A stretch of 64,000 nucleotides of DNA. Source: an uncultured Gammaproteobacteria bacterium (lineage in GTDB: Bacteria; Patescibacteriota; Microgenomatia; UBA8517). This document shows, piece by piece, positions 7,588-54,106 of the stretch (within the stretch, counting starts at the first letter, position 1; each line of letters starts with the position of its first letter). Made by a program: the position numbers and the translations under genes. The notes below the pieces were generated by a model that saw only the letters and a list, made by a program, of their open reading frames with translations, was not told where the DNA came from and ran no database searches. The DNA is taken from positions 244,959 to 308,958 of the forward strand of contig CAZRGC010000001.1 of NCBI GenBank assembly GCA_964599625.1, written 5' to 3'.

Positions 7588-8280
7588 ATGAAGAACAAGT
7601 TTTTAGGTTTATCAATTGTTGCAGCTTGGACAATTTCAATCGGAATAGGTGTGTATTCCATATTTTCTGCAACTCCATTGAATGTCATAAAGTCACCAAC
7701 AATACTAACCAACCTTCTTCAGAGAGTTACGGGAATAGTGGCGTTTATTCTACTTTTTTATCAGATATTGTTTGGGGCTTTTATGCCGTATCTTGCAGAA
7801 AAAACTGGAGGCATTATCTACAAGATCCATATTTATCAAGGCGTTTTGATATACACATTGATCTTGGCTCATCCTGTTTTCTTCCTTCTGTTTAATCATT
7901 TTGCCGGCAGGGGAGTGGATCCTTATTACGTTTTTAGTCAGGTTTGTTTCATATGCCAAAGCAAAGGGGAGGCTTACTACACATTTGGAAGAATTTCTTT
8001 CTGGTTAATAAACATAACTGTTTTTGCGGGTCTTTTTAGAACAATCAATCATTTTATGAGGGTTAATTGGAAGAAGTTCCATTTGTTGAATTACCCGGTT
8101 TTTGTTTTGGTGGGTATTCATGGTTACTTTGTGGGAAGTGATTTTTCTACTCAGCCATTTTTTGGCATGGCAATTTTGTTTTCTTTAGTATTTATGTTTG
8201 TACTTATCAAGAAAGCTCCGGAGTTATTTGCAGATTTTATGAAGTGGTTAAAAAGAGTTGATCGGGTACCGGTCACTTAA
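7588..8280 (+). CDS. Multi-TM protein with ferric-reductase-like (FRD/MsrQ-like) bis-heme His pairs
   Basis: About six TM helices. Two His-x13/x12-His pairs sit in predicted helices (HIYQGVLIYTLILAH and FHLLNYPVFVLVGIH), as in FRD / cytochrome b-type domains. Confidence 0.5.
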   Translation: MKNKFLGLSIVAAWTISIGIGVYSIFSATPLNVIKSPTILTNLLQRVTGIVAFILLFYQILFGAFMPYLAEKTGGIIYKIHIYQGVLIYTLILAHPVFFLLFNHFAGRGVDPYYVFSQVCFICQSKGEAYYTFGRISFWLINITVFAGLFRTINHFMRVNWKKFHLLNYPVFVLVGIHGYFVGSDFSTQPFFGMAILFSLVFMFVLIKKAPELFADFMKWLKRVDRVPVT

Positions 8281-8300
8281 TTTCAAAATGTGACCGGTAC
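8266..8300. terminator. Perfect 11-bp inverted repeat (gtaccggtcac / gtgaccggtac) with 13-nt loop between convergent genes; likely bidirectional terminator
   Basis: Hairpin seen directly. It overlaps the stop codon of the 7588-8280 gene and lies 12 nt from the stop of the 8312-8860 minus gene. Confidence 0.5.
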
Positions 8301-8311
8301 TCCGTATCCGA

Positions 8312-8860
8312 TTATGGCTGATTGTAAAACCGATAGCCGGTGACTTCACCTTTTTTGTTCACGATTAGAACAATGTTTTGGGCTCCGTCAAAGCTTTGGT
8401 ACTCTCCGATATTATCGGGGTGATAAATATAAACGTTACCCGAGGTGTCTGTGAACGTGAGTTCGTAGGTCTCACCAAAGGTTCCGTTGTTTATCCGTTC
8501 GCCTGGTACCAAAACAGGTTGTTCCCATTTGGGTAGGAAGTCTGCTGCACCGGCTTGACCGTATCGGAAGTGGCGCCATTCGTCCATTGTGTAGTCGCAA
8601 TAGTAGTTGTAGACGGTTTCCTCGTCTTCCAGATGCGACTCGCTCCAGCAGTGTGTGTTGTATGCACCTGCGGGTGCATATGAACGTTCCTCGTGATTGT
8701 ATTCAACGGCTTGAATCGTTTCTATGGAAACGCTCATTTCCCACACTTTTGATGTCAGGTTAACATTGACTTCGTGTGTTGCTGAGTTTACGGCGCTTCG
8801 GATCAAAATGGCGATTCCTGCCAGAACCAAGATTACAAAGAATATGTTTCTGAGTTTCAT
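8312..8860 (-). CDS. Small secreted/membrane-anchored protein, paralog family member 1 (182 aa)
   Basis: N-terminal signal/TM (FFVILVLAGIAILI). C-terminal motif TFTDTSGNVYIYHPDN is shared with the two downstream paralogs. GGGAG RBS before the ATG. Locally GC-richer. Confidence 0.6.
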   Translation of the reverse strand: MKLRNIFFVILVLAGIAILIRSAVNSATHEVNVNLTSKVWEMSVSIETIQAVEYNHEERSYAPAGAYNTHCWSESHLEDEETVYNYYCDYTMDEWRHFRYGQAGAADFLPKWEQPVLVPGERINNGTFGETYELTFTDTSGNVYIYHPDNIGEYQSFDGAQNIVLIVNKKGEVTGYRFYNQP

Positions 8861-47942: not shown

Positions 47943-48181
47943 TATTTCTTTATGAGTTTTACGATTTCGTATATAAAAAGGCCGAACCCGACCATGCAAA
48001 CGAAACCGCCAATGGCAAATCCTGCCATAGCACCCAGGTGTCCAACAAACATCGTAGCGATGCTTTGGAAGTTGCCGTTAAAGGCGCTGAGAGCCCCAAA
48101 GCCCATGTTGAGAAGGGCAAAGAGAAAACTCCCAATTTCGATAACACAACCTGAAATAAAAACTATCAATGCGCGCTTCAT
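47942..48181 (-). CDS. Small multi-TM membrane protein (79 aa)
   Basis: AAGGAG RBS 4 nt before the ATG at 48181. Gly-rich helices. Confidence 0.5.
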   Translation of the reverse strand: MKRALIVFISGCVIEIGSFLFALLNMGFGALSAFNGNFQSIATMFVGHLGAMAGFAIGGFVCMVGFGLFIYEIVKLIKK

Positions 48182-48325
48182 AGATTCTCCTTGAATCCGT
48201 GATTCACAACAAAATTTGTGATATTGAATTTTACAATATAACAAGTTCGAAGTCAAGATTATAGGCCAATTTTTAGGCACAAAAAACCTGGAGGGGCTTT
48301 AATATCCTTTCTCCAGGTTGGATTC

Positions 48326-48682
48326 TTAGCAGGCAGGGTAGTAGTTTGTCGAGAAAATTCCCCGACGTTCGTAGACTTGGATTTCTTGACCGACCGCAAG
48401 TGTTTGAAAACAGGCCTGGCTTACGTCGGAGGTTACACGGTAGTTTTCGATGACGTAAGTTACGCTCCAATACGGCCGTGTAATTGGTATCAGTACTTTG
48501 CCTGCGGGCAAAAGCGTAGTTCTGGTACCGGAGTCTTTGCTTTCAACATGCGAAATGCCTGCGAATTCGGGTTTGGCAAGGGACTGATCGATGCTGTATG
48601 CAACAATATATCCCAGCAGGGCGATGGCCACCACCAAAAGCATCATGATAACGATTTCTGTTATGTCAAATCTCATTATCAT
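48326..48682 (-). CDS. Hypothetical TM-anchored protein (118 aa)
   Basis: AGGA before ATG. N-terminal hydrophobic helix. Confidence 0.5.
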   Translation of the reverse strand: MIMRFDITEIVIMMLLVVAIALLGYIVAYSIDQSLAKPEFAGISHVESKDSGTRTTLLPAGKVLIPITRPYWSVTYVIENYRVTSDVSQACFQTLAVGQEIQVYERRGIFSTNYYPAC

Positions 48683-48683
48683 C

Positions 48684-49100
48684 CTAGCCTTCGGGCTCTA
48701 CATTTGCCTCGGATTTCCAGTCTCCTTGCGGGCGCCATTGTGAAACATCCAAACCATTTTCCAATGCCGCATTTAAAGCCTCGAAATCTTCGTCGCTCAG
48801 CGAATGGATGTAGTTGTTCCACCAGTGATACCATTTCCAGTATTCTGCTGTTGGTGCATCGTTTTCGCCTGTTGGGTTTTGGACCCCAAACCTTGTGAGC
48901 ATCTTGACTGCCGATTTTTGCTGTTCTTTGGCCGCAAGTATGTCGGCGTAGACTCCTTCAGACTGGCTTTCGGGAATTCTTCCATGGGTGAGCTCGTGCC
49001 GCATCCCAAAGGTGAACGCTCCGATCTGGTCGATTATGAAATAAACCAGAACTTCTGAGCCCTCTTCAATGGCTTTTTCAAACCATTCTTGTTGGAACAT
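48684..49100 (-). CDS. Hypothetical protein (138 aa) with HExxH-like motif (FGMRHELTHG)
   Basis: GGAGGA RBS 3 nt before ATG. Trp-rich C-terminus. Confidence 0.5.
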   Translation of the reverse strand: MFQQEWFEKAIEEGSEVLVYFIIDQIGAFTFGMRHELTHGRIPESQSEGVYADILAAKEQQKSAVKMLTRFGVQNPTGENDAPTAEYWKWYHWWNNYIHSLSDEDFEALNAALENGLDVSQWRPQGDWKSEANVEPEG

Positions 49101-49112
49101 TTGTCCTCCACA

Positions 49113-49451
49113 CTATTTGATGGCCAAAAGCGCTTGCCGAAGATCTCCCGTGGTGACAGAAACGGTCGCCTCTTTGTCGGCTGTGACAAAATACAAGTCG
49201 AGCGTGCTTGGGGTTGACCCTTGGCGAACACGTTTTTGTGTTTCTCCCAGGCGGGAATCGGCTTTTTTGGACTTTTTATCCTTGAGAAACGTGGAGGTCC
49301 AGAGGATTCTCCAAGGAATGCTGGCGGTAATTTGGACCTCAGAATTGACCGTTGCGGTCAAACTCACCTGGGGACCATTTTTCTCCAGCCTGACGTCAAG
49401 AGCACCACTTGAGGGAGTGATACTGGCAAATTTCTGTAAGGTTACAGACAT
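49113..49451 (-). CDS. Hypothetical protein (112 aa), first gene of the small-protein operon
   Basis: AGGAG RBS upstream. Ser/Thr-rich. Confidence 0.5.
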   Translation of the reverse strand: MSVTLQKFASITPSSGALDVRLEKNGPQVSLTATVNSEVQITASIPWRILWTSTFLKDKKSKKADSRLGETQKRVRQGSTPSTLDLYFVTADKEATVSVTTGDLRQALLAIK

Positions 49452-49623
49452 TTGAAATCTCCTATTAATGAGCTAGATTTGAATACTATCGGTAAACTTG
49501 CGTAGTATACCAAATACCCTTGGAAATGACATTAAAAAACAACTGGAGTGGTAGCTAATAAACTAGTTGGCTAGTTTTTGGCCATAAGTTTGACCAACAT
49601 GGAATTTGTGGTAAATTTTAAAA

Positions 49624-50259
49624 ATGGACGGAAGCTCAAAAATTGACCACGATCCCACATTCGATGTGGTGGAGATTGTAAAAATCAAATACAAAAATAT
49701 TGAGTTCAACGTTTCTGCTGGTGATATCATGAAGGAATTTAGAAGTTCAGATGCCATAGTTATTCCTTCGTCCCCCGAGCTTGACTTGCAAAGTGGTGTA
49801 ATCGAAAACCTGGTTGATGATGAATATGGAGATGGGCCATTTAAGGCACTCGCGGCAAAGAAAAAACAGATGAGCATACCGGATCATGTTCCGATGTGTA
49901 CCGCCGTCGATGCAATTTATCAAGGAAAAGACTTTGTATTTGTAAACATTCAACCCCCGTATGATGAGGATGATCAAACTTTTGAAGGTGTTAGGGAGTC
50001 TGCATTCAACTGTTTCAAAGAAGCCAACTTCAACGAGGCTCAATCCATAGTTGTTCCTGCACTGGGTAATGGTATGTGGCACGTTCCTATAAATGAAAGT
50101 GTTTCGGCTATTGCCGAAGCAGCAAAATCTTTTATAGATGAGATGACTAAGGAGGGTAACGAACCTGCACTAAGAAAGATAAGTATTGTTTTATATAAAC
50201 CCAAGACTGAAGACGGACCATTGATTAAAGACTCCGTAATCAAACTATTTTCCCAGTGA
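49624..50259 (+). CDS. Macro-domain protein (ADP-ribose binding/processing)
   Basis: DAIVIPSSPELDLQSGVIENL and IVVPALGNGMWHVP correspond to the Macro-domain ligand-binding loops. TTGACC-16-TAAATT promoter upstream. Confidence 0.65.
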   Translation: MDGSSKIDHDPTFDVVEIVKIKYKNIEFNVSAGDIMKEFRSSDAIVIPSSPELDLQSGVIENLVDDEYGDGPFKALAAKKKQMSIPDHVPMCTAVDAIYQGKDFVFVNIQPPYDEDDQTFEGVRESAFNCFKEANFNEAQSIVVPALGNGMWHVPINESVSAIAEAAKSFIDEMTKEGNEPALRKISIVLYKPKTEDGPLIKDSVIKLFSQ

Positions 50260-50298
50260 AGCTTCAATACAAACGGTATCGACGAGACATATATGACA

Positions 50299-50538
50299 TT
50301 AAACTAAATTGTGTTTTTTGATAAACGCTCGGCCCGACCCAGACTTGAGATATTTTTCAAATTTAAAAGCTGTAATCTTTTCACTAAAAGCGAAATACGA
50401 AATCAGTTTCAAGGGTTTTAGATTTCTTGTTGTATTAATTTGGCCAGAATTGTGGCGTTTTAACCTGTCCTTTAAGTTATTTGTACAACCAATGTAGGTC
50501 CGTCCATTTGAACAAAACAGTATGTAAATATAATACAT
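50299..50538 (-). CDS. GIY-YIG nuclease-family small protein (YhbQ/UPF0213-like, 79 aa)
   Basis: YYIYILFCSNGRTYIGCTNNLKDRLKRHNSG is a GIY-x10-YIG ... R ... N catalytic core. No additional DNA-binding domain. Confidence 0.7.
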   Translation of the reverse strand: MYYIYILFCSNGRTYIGCTNNLKDRLKRHNSGQINTTRNLKPLKLISYFAFSEKITAFKFEKYLKSGSGRAFIKKHNLV

Positions 50539-50612
50539 ATTGTTTCAGTATATCCGCTTTCGCTCTGACGGCGGGTAAACCTCGCCGTAGTCGAGCTTCA
50601 GCGAGACGAAGG

Positions 50613-50903
50613 CGGGATCGACGAGACTCGAACTCGCAACCTCTTCCGTGCTAAACCCAAGTCGGGTTTTGGACTATCTCATCATCCAGTTTTTCAACTT
50701 AGGACGCCAGGTATATAGTCTCTACACATTTATCCTTCGATTACGCTCAGGACTTACAGCCCTAAACATCATCTAGAAATTTAGCTCGGGATTCTCTTCT
50801 TTCGAAGTATTTTCCGAATTAGCCTGGTTTTACATCCCGGTATTACTACCAGGAGCTGCCACTTTTGACAGGGAAGCGCTCTAGCCAATTGAGCTACGAC
50901 CCC
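50613..50903 (-). tRNA. tRNA-Asp (anticodon GTC) interrupted by a 217-nt group I intron in the anticodon loop
   Basis: 5' exon (50868-50903) is GGGGTCG-TA-GCTC-AATTGGCTA-GAGC-G-CTTCC-CTGT. 3' exon (50613-50650) is CAC-GGAAG-AGGTT-GCGAG-TTCGAGT-CTCGT-CGATCCC-G. Joined, they give a canonical 74-nt tRNA with anticodon loop CUGUCAC, as in bacterial tRNA-Asp. Confidence 0.65.
50651..50867 (-). ncRNA. Group I self-splicing intron (217 nt) within tRNA-Asp
   Basis: 5' exon ends in U, pairing with internal guide GCAG 8 nt into the intron (P1 with U.G). The intron ends in G. Core elements R-like GUGUAGAGACUAUA and S-like GAGAUAGUCCAAA are present, with GACUA/UAGUC able to form P7. Size is similar to the smallest known tRNA introns. 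Confidence 0.6.
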
Positions 50904-50913
50904 AGATTTATCT

Positions 50914-50989
50914 GGGTATACAAGGCGAATGCCTTACGACCCCTTTTAGCTTCTAAAAGGGTATACAAGGCGAATGCCTTACGACCCCT
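50914..50989 (-). repeat. Two tandem 31-nt direct repeats (gggtatacaaggcgaatgccttacgacccct), separated by a 14-nt palindrome, immediately upstream of tRNA-Asp
   Basis: Each repeat ends with tacgacccc, the reverse complement of tRNA-Asp nt 1-9 (GGGGTCGTA). Each contains the hairpin aaggc-gaat-gcctt. The spacer ttttagcttctaaaa is itself palindromic. Confidence 0.6.
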
Positions 50990-51209
50990 AACTCTGAGTA
51001 TTTTATCACGGTACAAGCAAATTTCCGAGTGGCAAGCTTTGCTCACCAATAATAGTCTTTGGCAGCGTTAAGTTTTCACCTTGCGTTTGGTAAACATTCA
51101 GGCCGAAGTTTTTTTATCCTATAACTTGATTTTCTACACAATAAGGGGTAAAATTTGGCCTTAGTTTTTAATTGCACATTTCAAGAAAATTACGCGAAAG
51201 GACATATCT

Positions 51210-52244
51210 ATGTTCAAGAAAATTTTGCCCGTCATTTTTGCGGTTTCGCTCTTGATCACCGCATGCGGGGCCGGAATGGGCGAAGCGCCTGTTAACCCAG
51301 ACGGCTGTTCGTACGATTACAGCGTCACTTTTTACGGCGCGAACGTTGATCCGTTGGAACTCAAAATCACATCCCACGCAAGTTGGGTGCAGGACGAGGA
51401 TGATCCAGAATATTACCATCTTGTCGTTGATAACGACGAAGTTTGGCAGGGTCTGGTTGCCCGTCACAATGACGTTGTTGCCAAGCTCAACGCTGGCCTT
51501 TCGTTGTTGTTTGTGGATTCAGAATTCCTTCAAGGAGCCAAGTATTCCGAGATGGACGGTGAACCTGTTTCACTCACCTCCTCAAGCTATCGTGAGTGTC
51601 CAAACCCCGAGCAGTATGGGTTCTGGGACAACGGTTTTTATCACGGTTTGCCTTTTGAGGAGATGGACAACAACGGATACCTCACTTCAACCCGTATTGG
51701 TGACACAACGACGTTTGTCGAAGTGCGATCGGCGAAGAACAGTGTTGTGAACTATTCGTTCCCAACGGCTTATCTTGAGACGATTTACAACTACGCTTTC
51801 GGCCGCGGTGAGACAAACCTTTCACTCGATGCCCAATATGTGGAAATACCCCGCCCCGACATGCCCGACGGACTCACTTACTCGCAAGCAATGCTTGATC
51901 AAATGGTGAATGCCGACGCAGACGGCCGCGAAGCTGTTTCTTTCACCCTTAACATCGAGGACTTTGAAGGACGCGCCCAGCTTAAGCCTGTGATAGCCAA
52001 AGGCATCGAACTTGCCGCGGCGCAAGAAGGCAGTCCTGTACTTGCGACCATTCATGCGATGATGAGTTCGGGTCAGCGCCAGATCGCATATGCCAGTATG
52101 CACGGAAGTTTCTCCATCAAAGGAGCCTTCTTCCTTGGTATTGGTGGAGTCAATGGCGGCGGCTATATCGACGGTCAGGCCGGCAGTAATGCCTGGTTCG
52201 AAGATGTGGTGAAGGCTTCGGTCTACATCACTCCGCAAGAGTAA
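51210..52244 (+). CDS. Hypothetical lipoprotein (signal peptide + lipobox LITAC), GC-rich
   Basis: MFKKILPVIFAVSLLITAC|GAG. Confidence 0.6.
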   Translation: MFKKILPVIFAVSLLITACGAGMGEAPVNPDGCSYDYSVTFYGANVDPLELKITSHASWVQDEDDPEYYHLVVDNDEVWQGLVARHNDVVAKLNAGLSLLFVDSEFLQGAKYSEMDGEPVSLTSSSYRECPNPEQYGFWDNGFYHGLPFEEMDNNGYLTSTRIGDTTTFVEVRSAKNSVVNYSFPTAYLETIYNYAFGRGETNLSLDAQYVEIPRPDMPDGLTYSQAMLDQMVNADADGREAVSFTLNIEDFEGRAQLKPVIAKGIELAAAQEGSPVLATIHAMMSSGQRQIAYASMHGSFSIKGAFFLGIGGVNGGGYIDGQAGSNAWFEDVVKASVYITPQE

Positions 52245-52270
52245 TTTTTTTGTGGTAAGTCAAACCGCTT

Positions 52271-54106
52271 TTGGAGAAATCTGGAAGCGGTTTTTTTGTG
52301 GTAAAAATCCTGTTGTATACTAAACTCGTGACGGATAAAAAATTCCTCAACAATATAGAGATATCAGAACTTCTTAGGGATGTAGCTGCAGCCTACCAAC
52401 TCAAAGATTCGGGTGGTGCTAGATTCAAAATAATTGCATACCAACGTGCTGCCGATGCAGTGGAGCACGCAACAAGTGAACTCAAAGATTTGTGGGATGA
52501 CGGAAAACTCAAAGAAATTCCGGGAGTTGGTGCGAGTATTGCGGAACATCTTTCCGAACTTTTTTCTACAGGTAGATCAAAACATTTTGATGAATTAATG
52601 GAAGGGTTACCAAAAAGCATGTTTGAATTTATGAAAGTTCCCGGAATTGGACCCAAAACCGCATATAAGTTGGCACATGATTTGAGTCTAAAATCTCTGA
52701 GCGATCTGGAAAAAGCCGCCAAAAAAGGAAGAATTGCAGAACTTGAAGGATTTGGAGAACAGTCGCAAAAAGACATATTGGATTCCATTGGAACAGTTCG
52801 CAAAAGGATCAAACGACACCTTCTTCCATACGCAATGGAAATTTCAGGAAGGGTTATTGATTATCTATTGGCCAATAAAGCCGTTAAAAAAGCCGATACT
52901 TTGGGAAGTTTAAGGCGCAAAGTTTCCACAATTGGCGATATTGATATTGCAGCAGCAACGGAAGATCCGGAGAAAGTGTTGGAATATTTTACAAAGTTTC
53001 CCAATACTCAAAAAATTTTGGAAAAAGGAACAAGAACTGCGGCAATAATTTTACCTGGTGCGGTGCAGGTTGATTTAATGGTAGAAACGCCCGAGGCTTA
53101 CGGCAGTTTGTTGCAGCATTTCACGGGTTCCAAACATCATAACATTGCACTTCGTGAGTTGGCTCTCAAAAAAGGTTTTAGTTTGTCGGACTACGGTGTC
53201 AAAAAAGTCGGGTCCGAAAAACTTATCAAGTTTGACGGCGAAGAAAAGCTTTACAACTTTTTCGGTTTGGATTTTATTCCACCGGAGATGCGCGAAGATA
53301 CAGGAGAGATTAGTGTTTCAATGGAACACAAACTTCCAAAACTTGTTGAAATAAAAGACATAAAAGCCGACCTCCAGATTCATTCGGATTTTGATGTAGA
53401 AACAAGCCACGACGTTGGTGCCTCTTCGATGGAAGAACTTGTTAAAAAAGCTGACGAAAAGGGATATGAGTATATTGCATTTACGGATCACAACCCAAGC
53501 CAAAAGGGACATTCTGCAAAAGATTTTGTGGAAATTCTCAAAAAACGCCGTGAAAGAATTGAAAAATTAAATTACTCACTCAAAAATATGAATATAAAAA
53601 ATGTTCAAAAAGTTTTCAATAGCCTTGAAATAGACATAATACCAAATGGGGATCTACCTGTGCCGCAGGAGGCCTTGGATGAATTAGATTTTGCACTGGT
53701 TTCCATACATTCAAGTTTTGAAGGCGAACGCGATGCCAATACAAAAAGGGTCTTAAAAGCACTTTCAAATCCCAAAGTCAAAATATTTGCCCATCCAACC
53801 GGAAGGAAACTAAATGAACGGGAAGGCGTGGATCTTAATTGGCCCGAGATATTTGAATTTTGCCTTAAGAGGGGCAAGTGGATTGAAATAAACTGCGACC
53901 CGATGAGGTTGGATCTGCCTGACATATTGGTGCGTGAAGGCGTTAAGCTTGGTATCAAATTTAGTTTGGGTACAGACTCGCATCACAAAGACATGATGAA
54001 TAATATTCCGTTCGGTATAACTGTTGCCAGACGCGGGTGGGCAGAAAAAAAGGATATTGTAAACACACTTTCGTACGTGGATTTTTGCAAAGCTTTCGCA
54101 GTATAA
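52271..54106 (+). CDS. polX: DNA polymerase X family protein with C-terminal PHP domain
   Basis: Pol-beta-like HhH motifs (IPGVGASIAEHL, VPGIGPKTAYKL). Nucleotidyltransferase motif GSLRRKVSTIGDIDIAA. PHP-domain histidines (IHSDFD, AFTDHN). The true start is probably downstream of the annotated ATG. Confidence 0.85.
   Translation: MEKSGSGFFVVKILLYTKLVTDKKFLNNIEISELLRDVAAAYQLKDSGGARFKIIAYQRAADAVEHATSELKDLWDDGKLKEIPGVGASIAEHLSELFSTGRSKHFDELMEGLPKSMFEFMKVPGIGPKTAYKLAHDLSLKSLSDLEKAAKKGRIAELEGFGEQSQKDILDSIGTVRKRIKRHLLPYAMEISGRVIDYLLANKAVKKADTLGSLRRKVSTIGDIDIAAATEDPEKVLEYFTKFPNTQKILEKGTRTAAIILPGAVQVDLMVETPEAYGSLLQHFTGSKHHNIALRELALKKGFSLSDYGVKKVGSEKLIKFDGEEKLYNFFGLDFIPPEMREDTGEISVSMEHKLPKLVEIKDIKADLQIHSDFDVETSHDVGASSMEELVKKADEKGYEYIAFTDHNPSQKGHSAKDFVEILKKRRERIEKLNYSLKNMNIKNVQKVFNSLEIDIIPNGDLPVPQEALDELDFALVSIHSSFEGERDANTKRVLKALSNPKVKIFAHPTGRKLNEREGVDLNWPEIFEFCLKRGKWIEINCDPMRLDLPDILVREGVKLGIKFSLGTDSHHKDMMNNIPFGITVARRGWAEKKDIVNTLSYVDFCKAFAV

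Follow-up and report, generated by a model that had tools for sequence, protein, structure and literature searches.

Group I introns in the tRNA-Asp(GUC) genes of Patescibacteria, inserted between anticodon positions 35 and 36, have been described by Nakagawa et al. (mSystems 2026; PMC13011429). The survey of 4,934 complete genomes, which used sub-threshold intron matches at E < 1e-4, counted 28 introns at 35/36, of which 19 belong to Patescibacteria; the assigned subgroup was IA for 25 of the 28, and IC for no Patescibacteria tRNA intron. The tRNA-Asp of GCA_001029755.1 (class Microgenomatia) showed GTP-dependent self-splicing in vitro and the ligated product was sequenced; an omega G-to-C mutant of the same intron failed to splice. 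Relatives have no tRNA-Asp copy other than the intron-bearing one, and such genes are mis-annotated by tools as another tRNA, tRNA-Ala (PMC13011429).

An earlier catalogue, Williams 2020 (10.1101/2020.01.27.920355), extended the tRNA settings of group I introns from 4 to 21 in about 81,000 genomes. It looks for a sub-threshold Intron_gpI match (18-20 bits) inside an ARAGORN split-tRNA call; this detection logic of the tFind catalogue, including the rule of U at -1 and G at omega, is also the one used here. Asp(GUC) 35/36 is called by tFind in two published genomes (PMC13011429).

The classical introns differ from ours in host tRNA and position: tRNA-Leu(UAA) at 34/35 (cyanobacterial and plastid), tRNA-fMet at 33/34, and Agrobacterium tRNA-Arg(CCU) and Azoarcus tRNA-Ile(CAU), both at 36/37. 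The P7 and J8/7 motifs of the classical bacterial tRNA introns are nevertheless similar to those reported below. The classical introns are listed as IC3, in contrast to IA for most of the 35/36 introns (PMC13011429). A sequence-only reading of the present locus had known of tRNA introns in these four hosts and so considered an Asp intron unusual; its list is the pre-2020 one, and the Asp 35/36 setting is published.

The locus studied here lies in a stretch of DNA of 64,000 nucleotides, analysed as a whole and called the window below. With a probability of roughly 0.93, we read it as a functional tRNA-Asp(GUC) gene of a Patescibacteria bacterium (Microgenomatia/Woesebacteria-like), split at 35/36 by a 217-nt, endonuclease-free group I ribozyme. 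Judged by sequence, the intron is an ortholog of one already published for the same bacterial group, at the same site, and validated by experiment; the finding is real, and it is already known.

Comparison with the published introns

Sequences for comparison were taken from Table S3 of PMC13011429. The exons of GCA_001029755.1 agree with those of the window at 73/74 positions and its intron is 63% identical over aligned positions; for GCA_030583725.1 (also class Microgenomatia) the values are 72/74 and 70% over aligned positions. The Patescibacteria 35/36 introns have the host gene, insertion site, P1 U.G pair and omega G in common with the window intron. The blocks GGCUAAUUCGG, AAUCCCGAGCUAAA and GUGUAGAGACUAUA are present in all of them, and AUGAGAUAGUCC corresponds to AUAAGAUAGUCC in GCA_001029755.1. 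By synteny the bacterial group is the same, and the species are different. The window intron is longer (217 nt, compared with 184-196 nt for the published ones); the extra length comes from its extended P6 arm and from a P5 unlike theirs. An A.C mismatch in P4 also sets it apart from the published Patescibacteria introns.

The tRNA-Asp gene

The gene occupies window positions 50903..50613 on the minus strand and consists of a 36-nt exon, a 217-nt intron and a 38-nt exon:

50868..50903, minus strand: tRNA-Asp 5' exon, 36 nt; acceptor 5' strand, D arm, 5' anticodon stem and loop bases C32 U33 G34 U35
50651..50867, minus strand: group I intron, 217 nt, without an ORF; identified by Rfam RF00028, by covariation in 18 sequences and by its absence from an intronless allele
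50613..50650, minus strand: tRNA-Asp 3' exon, 38 nt; C36 A37 C38, 3' anticodon stem, variable loop, T arm and acceptor 3' strand

The 5' exon (minus strand, 50903..50868) reads GGGGTCGTAGCTCAATTGGCTAGAGCGCTTCCCTGT and ends in U35, which is a partner in the U.G pair of P1. The 3' exon (minus strand, 50650..50613) reads CACGGAAGAGGTTGCGAGTTCGAGTCTCGTCGATCCCG, with the discriminator G73 at 50613. The window allele of tRNA-Asp is marked by its D-loop base (GGCUAGAGC). When the exons are joined in silico, ARAGORN returns tRNA-Asp(gtc) with a regular cloverleaf, the anticodon loop CUGUCAC and discriminator G, and the program also recovers the split gene with its 217-nt intron when run with the intron option. 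The two halves, 217 nt apart, that the sequence-only reading had assigned to tRNA-Asp(GUC) are thus borne out both by the reading of the exons and by ARAGORN on the joined exons.

Default searches give a different picture. Over the whole window, ARAGORN with default settings lists tRNA-Val, tRNA-Thr and tRNA-Gly only and misses the tRNA-Asp locus; Rfam at the gathering threshold returns the same three tRNAs and no intron. No second tRNA-Asp is found by default ARAGORN within the 64-kb window.

Downstream of the discriminator, positions 50612-50611 are CC, followed by T, so that the CCA end of the tRNA is partly encoded; with a partly templated 3' CCA, a CCA-adding enzyme would be needed.

The group I intron

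The intron starts with CAAAAGUGGCAG and ends with GGGUUUAG (...UUUAG), with the omega G at 50651. The sequence-only reading had also expected an intron-terminal G, a 5' exon ending in U and paired with a GCAG guide, and R-like and S-like elements forming P7; it had proposed an Rfam scan, folding of the 217 nt and a survey of tRNA-Asp genes in related genomes as checks. All three structural expectations agree with what we find: omega G is where it was placed, U35 stands opposite the first G of GCAG, and intron nt 146-153 pair with nt 191-197. Read 5' to 3' along the minus strand, the elements are as follows:

50856..50862, minus strand: internal guide sequence GUGGCAG, intron nt 6-12, read from the sequence
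50835..50854, minus strand: P2 hairpin, UCCUGGUA-GUAA-UACCGGGA, 8 bp with a GNRA tetraloop
50823..50827, minus strand: P3 5' strand CCAGG, partner 50711..50707
50785..50818, minus strand: P4-P5 domain; P4 UUCGGAA/UCCCGAG, P5 CUUC-GAAA-GAAG
50733..50778, minus strand: extended P6 arm, intron nt 90-135
50715..50722, minus strand: P7 5' strand G(A)GACUAU, the 'R' element, with a bulged A; partner 50677..50671; invariant in 18/18 sequences
50707..50711, minus strand: P3 3' strand CCUGG, supported by the covariation count
50683..50706, minus strand: P8 hairpin CGUCC-UA-AGUU-GAAA-AACU-GGAUG, with a GAAA loop
50671..50677, minus strand: P7 3' strand AUAGUCC, the 'S' element, with J8/7 AUGAG directly before it; invariant in 18/18 sequences
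50653..50669, minus strand: P9 hairpin AAACCC-GACUU-GGGUUU, followed by A and the omega G

The Rfam scan, run with an E-value threshold on 901 nt, matches RF00028 (Intron_gpI) at 50883..50655 on the minus strand over model positions 1-253, the full length of the model, with E = 2.3e-8. The score is 39.3 bits and does not reach the curated gathering score of 50 for this family. Apart from Intron_gpI, the E-value threshold scan gives no Rfam family in the intron region, group II included.

The guide sequence GUGGCAG is complementary to all seven bases of the anticodon loop, CUGU|CAC. In P1, the exon bases CUGU pair with GCAG (intron nt 9-12), with U35 in a wobble pair with the first G of GCAG; 5/5 pairs are standard and invariant in 18/18 sequences. 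G8 of the intron may instead pair with intron C1, which would lengthen P1. In P10, the guide bases GUG (intron nt 6-8) pair with CAC, bases 1-3 of the 3' exon. The triplet 5' of GCAG is GUG in 11/18 homologs, and its final G, the partner of C36, is present in all. P7 is formed by GAGACUAU (intron nt 146-153) and AUAGUCC (intron nt 191-197), with the R element inside a wider GUGUAGAGACUAUAUA block; the layout around its 5' strand agrees with the Rfam consensus, and we infer that P7 is the guanosine-binding helix. The 217 nt show no P7.1/P7.2 insertions. The extended P6 arm exceeds that of most homologs in length and is common to the closest homolog locus (L021) and, in part, to L024.

Folded alone, the intron reaches -69.2 kcal/mol; compared with 200 dinucleotide shuffles, this is z = -4.9. 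Its centroid fold contains P1, P2, P3, P4, P5, P6, P8 and P9. RNAalifold, run on the alignment of homologs described below, gives a local hairpin over the P7 5' strand and not the P3/P7 pseudoknot; the canonical P7 pairing was used instead.

Homologs and covariation

To collect homologs, one genome per species was scanned with a pattern consisting of the P7/J8-7 core and the first bases of the 3' exon. The scan yields 21 loci; in 15 of these, a homologous intron interrupts a tRNA-Asp gene at the identical site. Most of these homolog loci come from MAGs titled Woesebacteria, Microgenomates or Patescibacteria, and several from MAGs titled 'uncultured Gammaproteobacteria'. The locus closest to the window is L021, with 80.6% identity over tRNA and intron.

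The 15 scan homologs, the window and two published sequences were aligned with MAFFT (alignment A1, 18 sequences). A1 has no variation in the exons, in the core blocks GGCUAAUUCGG, AAUCCCGAGCUAAA, GUGUAGAGACUAUA and AGAUAGUCC, or at the omega G preceding the 3' exon. Pairs were counted for the tRNA cloverleaf together with P1-P5 and P7-P9, with P7 treated as a pseudoknot. Standard pairs occupy 95.7% of the pair cells, compared with 38-50% when the partners are slid, and 28/64 pairs show changes on both sides, a number reached by 0/500 column shuffles.

Compensatory changes among the 18 sequences fall in P2, P3, P5, P8 and P9. They affect 5/6 tested pairs in P2 and 5/5 outer pairs in P8; in P3, changes are two-sided in 3/5 pairs and 98.9% of cells are paired; and the P9 hairpin is found at the equivalent place in the homologs, again with compensatory changes. 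The MAFFT register is imperfect at P2 (75% paired) and at P9, where the window's own helix is out of register. P1, P4 and P7 are without variation in A1, apart from one P4 pair in the window, and thus neither support nor contradict the fold. The exceptional pair joins window positions 50813 and 50790 (intron nt 55 and 78), which are A.C in the window and G-C in 17/17 homologs; the adjoining pair is A-U in the window intron, not G.U.

The same core pattern also caught two tRNA-Leu(UAA) introns, at 7122-7217 in L020 (a Hydrococcus cyanobacterium MAG) and at 6313-6408 in L029 (a MAG titled Candidatus Gracilibacteria); the two tRNA-Leu(UAA) genes are near-identical, with 269-nt group I introns, and the Gracilibacteria contig may be a mis-binned cyanobacterial one. 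Among viral contigs, the scan gave a single group I intron, in L035 (IMGVR_UViG_3300037091_000121); its core at 8265-8349 has the same P7/J8-7 motifs and no surrounding tRNA. Seven MAGs titled 'uncultured Gammaproteobacteria bacterium' (L014, L015, L017, L019, L022, L023 and L031) contain the Patescibacteria-type tRNA-Asp intron. In the first six, the flanking gene order is common to the window and the Patescibacteria MAGs; L031, a contig of 1180 nt, aligns with the window over tRNA and intron only. The Gammaproteobacteria label on these seven third-party assemblies looks wrong.

Intronless and intron-bearing alleles

The gene for a 344-aa protein adjoining the tRNA (51210-52244) is found with identical sequence on nine metagenome contigs, and a 211-aa protein on the other side of the tRNA leads to four further metagenome contigs. 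Four contigs (L001, L006, L007 and L008) carry an uninterrupted tRNA-Asp that reads ...CCCTGTCACGGAAG... (also ...GCGCTTCCCTGTCACGGAAGAGG...), with the junction CCCTGTCACGG and the anticodon loop CUGUCAC; in two others, L010 and L011, the gene contains the window's intron. On either side of the tRNA, L001 agrees with the window at 99.2% (2773 nt) and 97.3% (1728 nt) identity. With flanks this similar, the 217 nt amount to a clean presence/absence difference between haplotypes. No sample with both alleles was seen; the intron-bearing and intronless alleles come from different samples.

The intronless allele also fixes the insertion point. Because the intron and the 3' exon both start with C, the junction is ambiguous by one base (C/C), and the requirement of group I introns for U at -1 and G at omega settles the ambiguity at 35/36, the position between anticodon nucleotides that had been proposed from the window sequence.

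In relatives with 63-73% nucleotide identity, the syntenic gene contains the intron. The intronless allele would thus more probably have arisen by precise loss or by replacement of the allele than represent the ancestral state.

Flanking region

The genes around the tRNA encode PolX (52271-54106), a LemA-family protein, an MFS transporter and an M48 peptidase. Over these genes the window is syntenic with loci from Patescibacteria- and Woesebacteria-titled MAGs at 63-73% nucleotide identity; with tblastx, most segments have 62-80% amino-acid identity. The syntenic loci have the intron-bearing tRNA-Asp in the same place, beside PolX, LemA and the M48 peptidase. This synteny indicates that the window comes from a Patescibacteria bacterium related to Microgenomatia/Woesebacteria. 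A phage origin was considered and dropped, as blastn of 48000-54000 against a phage collection gave no match.

Downstream of the tRNA, at a distance of 75 nt and on its strand, begins a free-standing GIY-YIG ORF of 79 aa (50299-50538, minus strand; Pfam PF01541, E = 6e-16). We considered it as a homing endonuclease for the intron and rejected it, since its position is external to the intron and L001 has it next to an intronless tRNA-Asp as well. Of the related loci, L018 alone has a nearby homolog of this ORF. The contigs L006 and L007 diverge from the window immediately past the tRNA 3' end, which suggests that the GIY-YIG ORF, too, is a cassette that varies.

Two exact direct repeats of 31 nt (50914-50944 and 50959-50989), 45 nt apart, immediately precede the tRNA. 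Each contains, in this order, the first 9 nt of the tRNA (GGGGTCGTA, compare 50895-50903), AGGCATTC and 13 upstream nt (GCCTTGTATACCC), the last being sequence that normally lies upstream of the tRNA-Asp gene. Hairpins are formed by their spacers with the GGGGT of the unit that follows. L001, an intronless haplotype, lacks the repeats; they could stem from a leader duplicated in tandem or be a scar of recombination. Further upstream, the window retains at 51026-51075 the last ~50 nt of a gene for a 135-aa protein of the PDDEXK_5 nuclease family. In other haplotypes, L002 (18-425) and L004 and L009 (84-491 in both), the full gene sits between the tRNA and the 344-aa gene; L001 has none of it. 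The stretch upstream of the tRNA-Asp gene is a structural-variation hotspot.

Alternative readings

The locus might instead be a decaying pseudogene, that is, a tRNA-Asp inactivated by a group I-derived insertion that has lost splicing. An Rfam score of 39.3 bits against a gathering score of 50 would fit such a history, as would the A.C mismatch in P4, which is found in the window allele alone (1/18) and might weaken folding, and the occurrence of intronless alleles in closely related populations. We nevertheless regard decay as very improbable: the catalytic-core blocks are identical to those of 17 homologs, one of which has been shown to splice; P1, P10, the omega G and P7 are intact; so are the exons, which are identical to functional tRNA-Asp genes (73/74 with GCA_001029755.1); the same intron-bearing allele is present in two independent samples; and in relatives the intron-bearing gene is the only tRNA-Asp copy (PMC13011429). 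By analogy with the ortholog, we infer that the window copy itself splices.

Other doubts concern the boundaries and the type of intron. ARAGORN places the intron 4 nt further 3', with the loop CUGUCAA, and calls several of the homologs tRNA-Ala(tgc); the same mis-annotation is described in PMC13011429. On such boundaries, or with a two-base shift read as tRNA-Ala, the gene would encode another tRNA. This is less probable still, since the intronless allele has CUGUCAC, only the 35/36 placement provides both the U(-1).G pair in P1 and a terminal G, and the spliced junction of the ortholog has been sequenced (PMC13011429). An intron removed by proteins (of the archaeal/eukaryotic endonuclease type) or a group II intron is hardly credible: we found no point in favor of either, the group I motifs and helices are present and covary, the insertion site is other than the canonical 37/38, and the region matches neither group II nor any other Rfam family.

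Under the group I reading, transcription would yield a 291-nt precursor in which the guide GCAG and the exon bases CUGU form P1, so that the U.G wobble of U35 comes to lie at the 5' splice site. A free guanosine occupying P7 would then attack after U35. The guide bases GUG would pair with CAC of the 3' exon in P10, the terminal G of the intron would enter the same site, and ligation of the exons would give a tRNA with the anticodon loop CUGUCAC.

Significance

Since default tRNA finders and the curated Rfam threshold miss the gene, a genome like this one would be scored as lacking tRNA-Asp and its completeness would be underrated; this point about annotation and completeness was already made in PMC13011429. 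The window intron leaves general knowledge of group I introns unchanged. The described tRNA-Asp intron lineage of Patescibacteria gains the window member and at least 15 more from the genome scan.

The sole new point, and a mildly new one, is the presence/absence of an endonuclease-free intron between haplotypes with 97-99% identical flanks. Group I introns without an endonuclease gene are viewed in the literature as largely immobile. That the two alleles mean that such introns are still being gained or cleanly lost in a probably single-copy tRNA-Asp in wild Patescibacteria populations is a tentative suggestion, which we consider rather unlikely; possible routes would be reverse splicing, recombination with cDNA of the spliced tRNA, or allele exchange. 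The natural intron-plus/intron-minus pair offers material for work on how an intron that has no endonuclease gene turns over.
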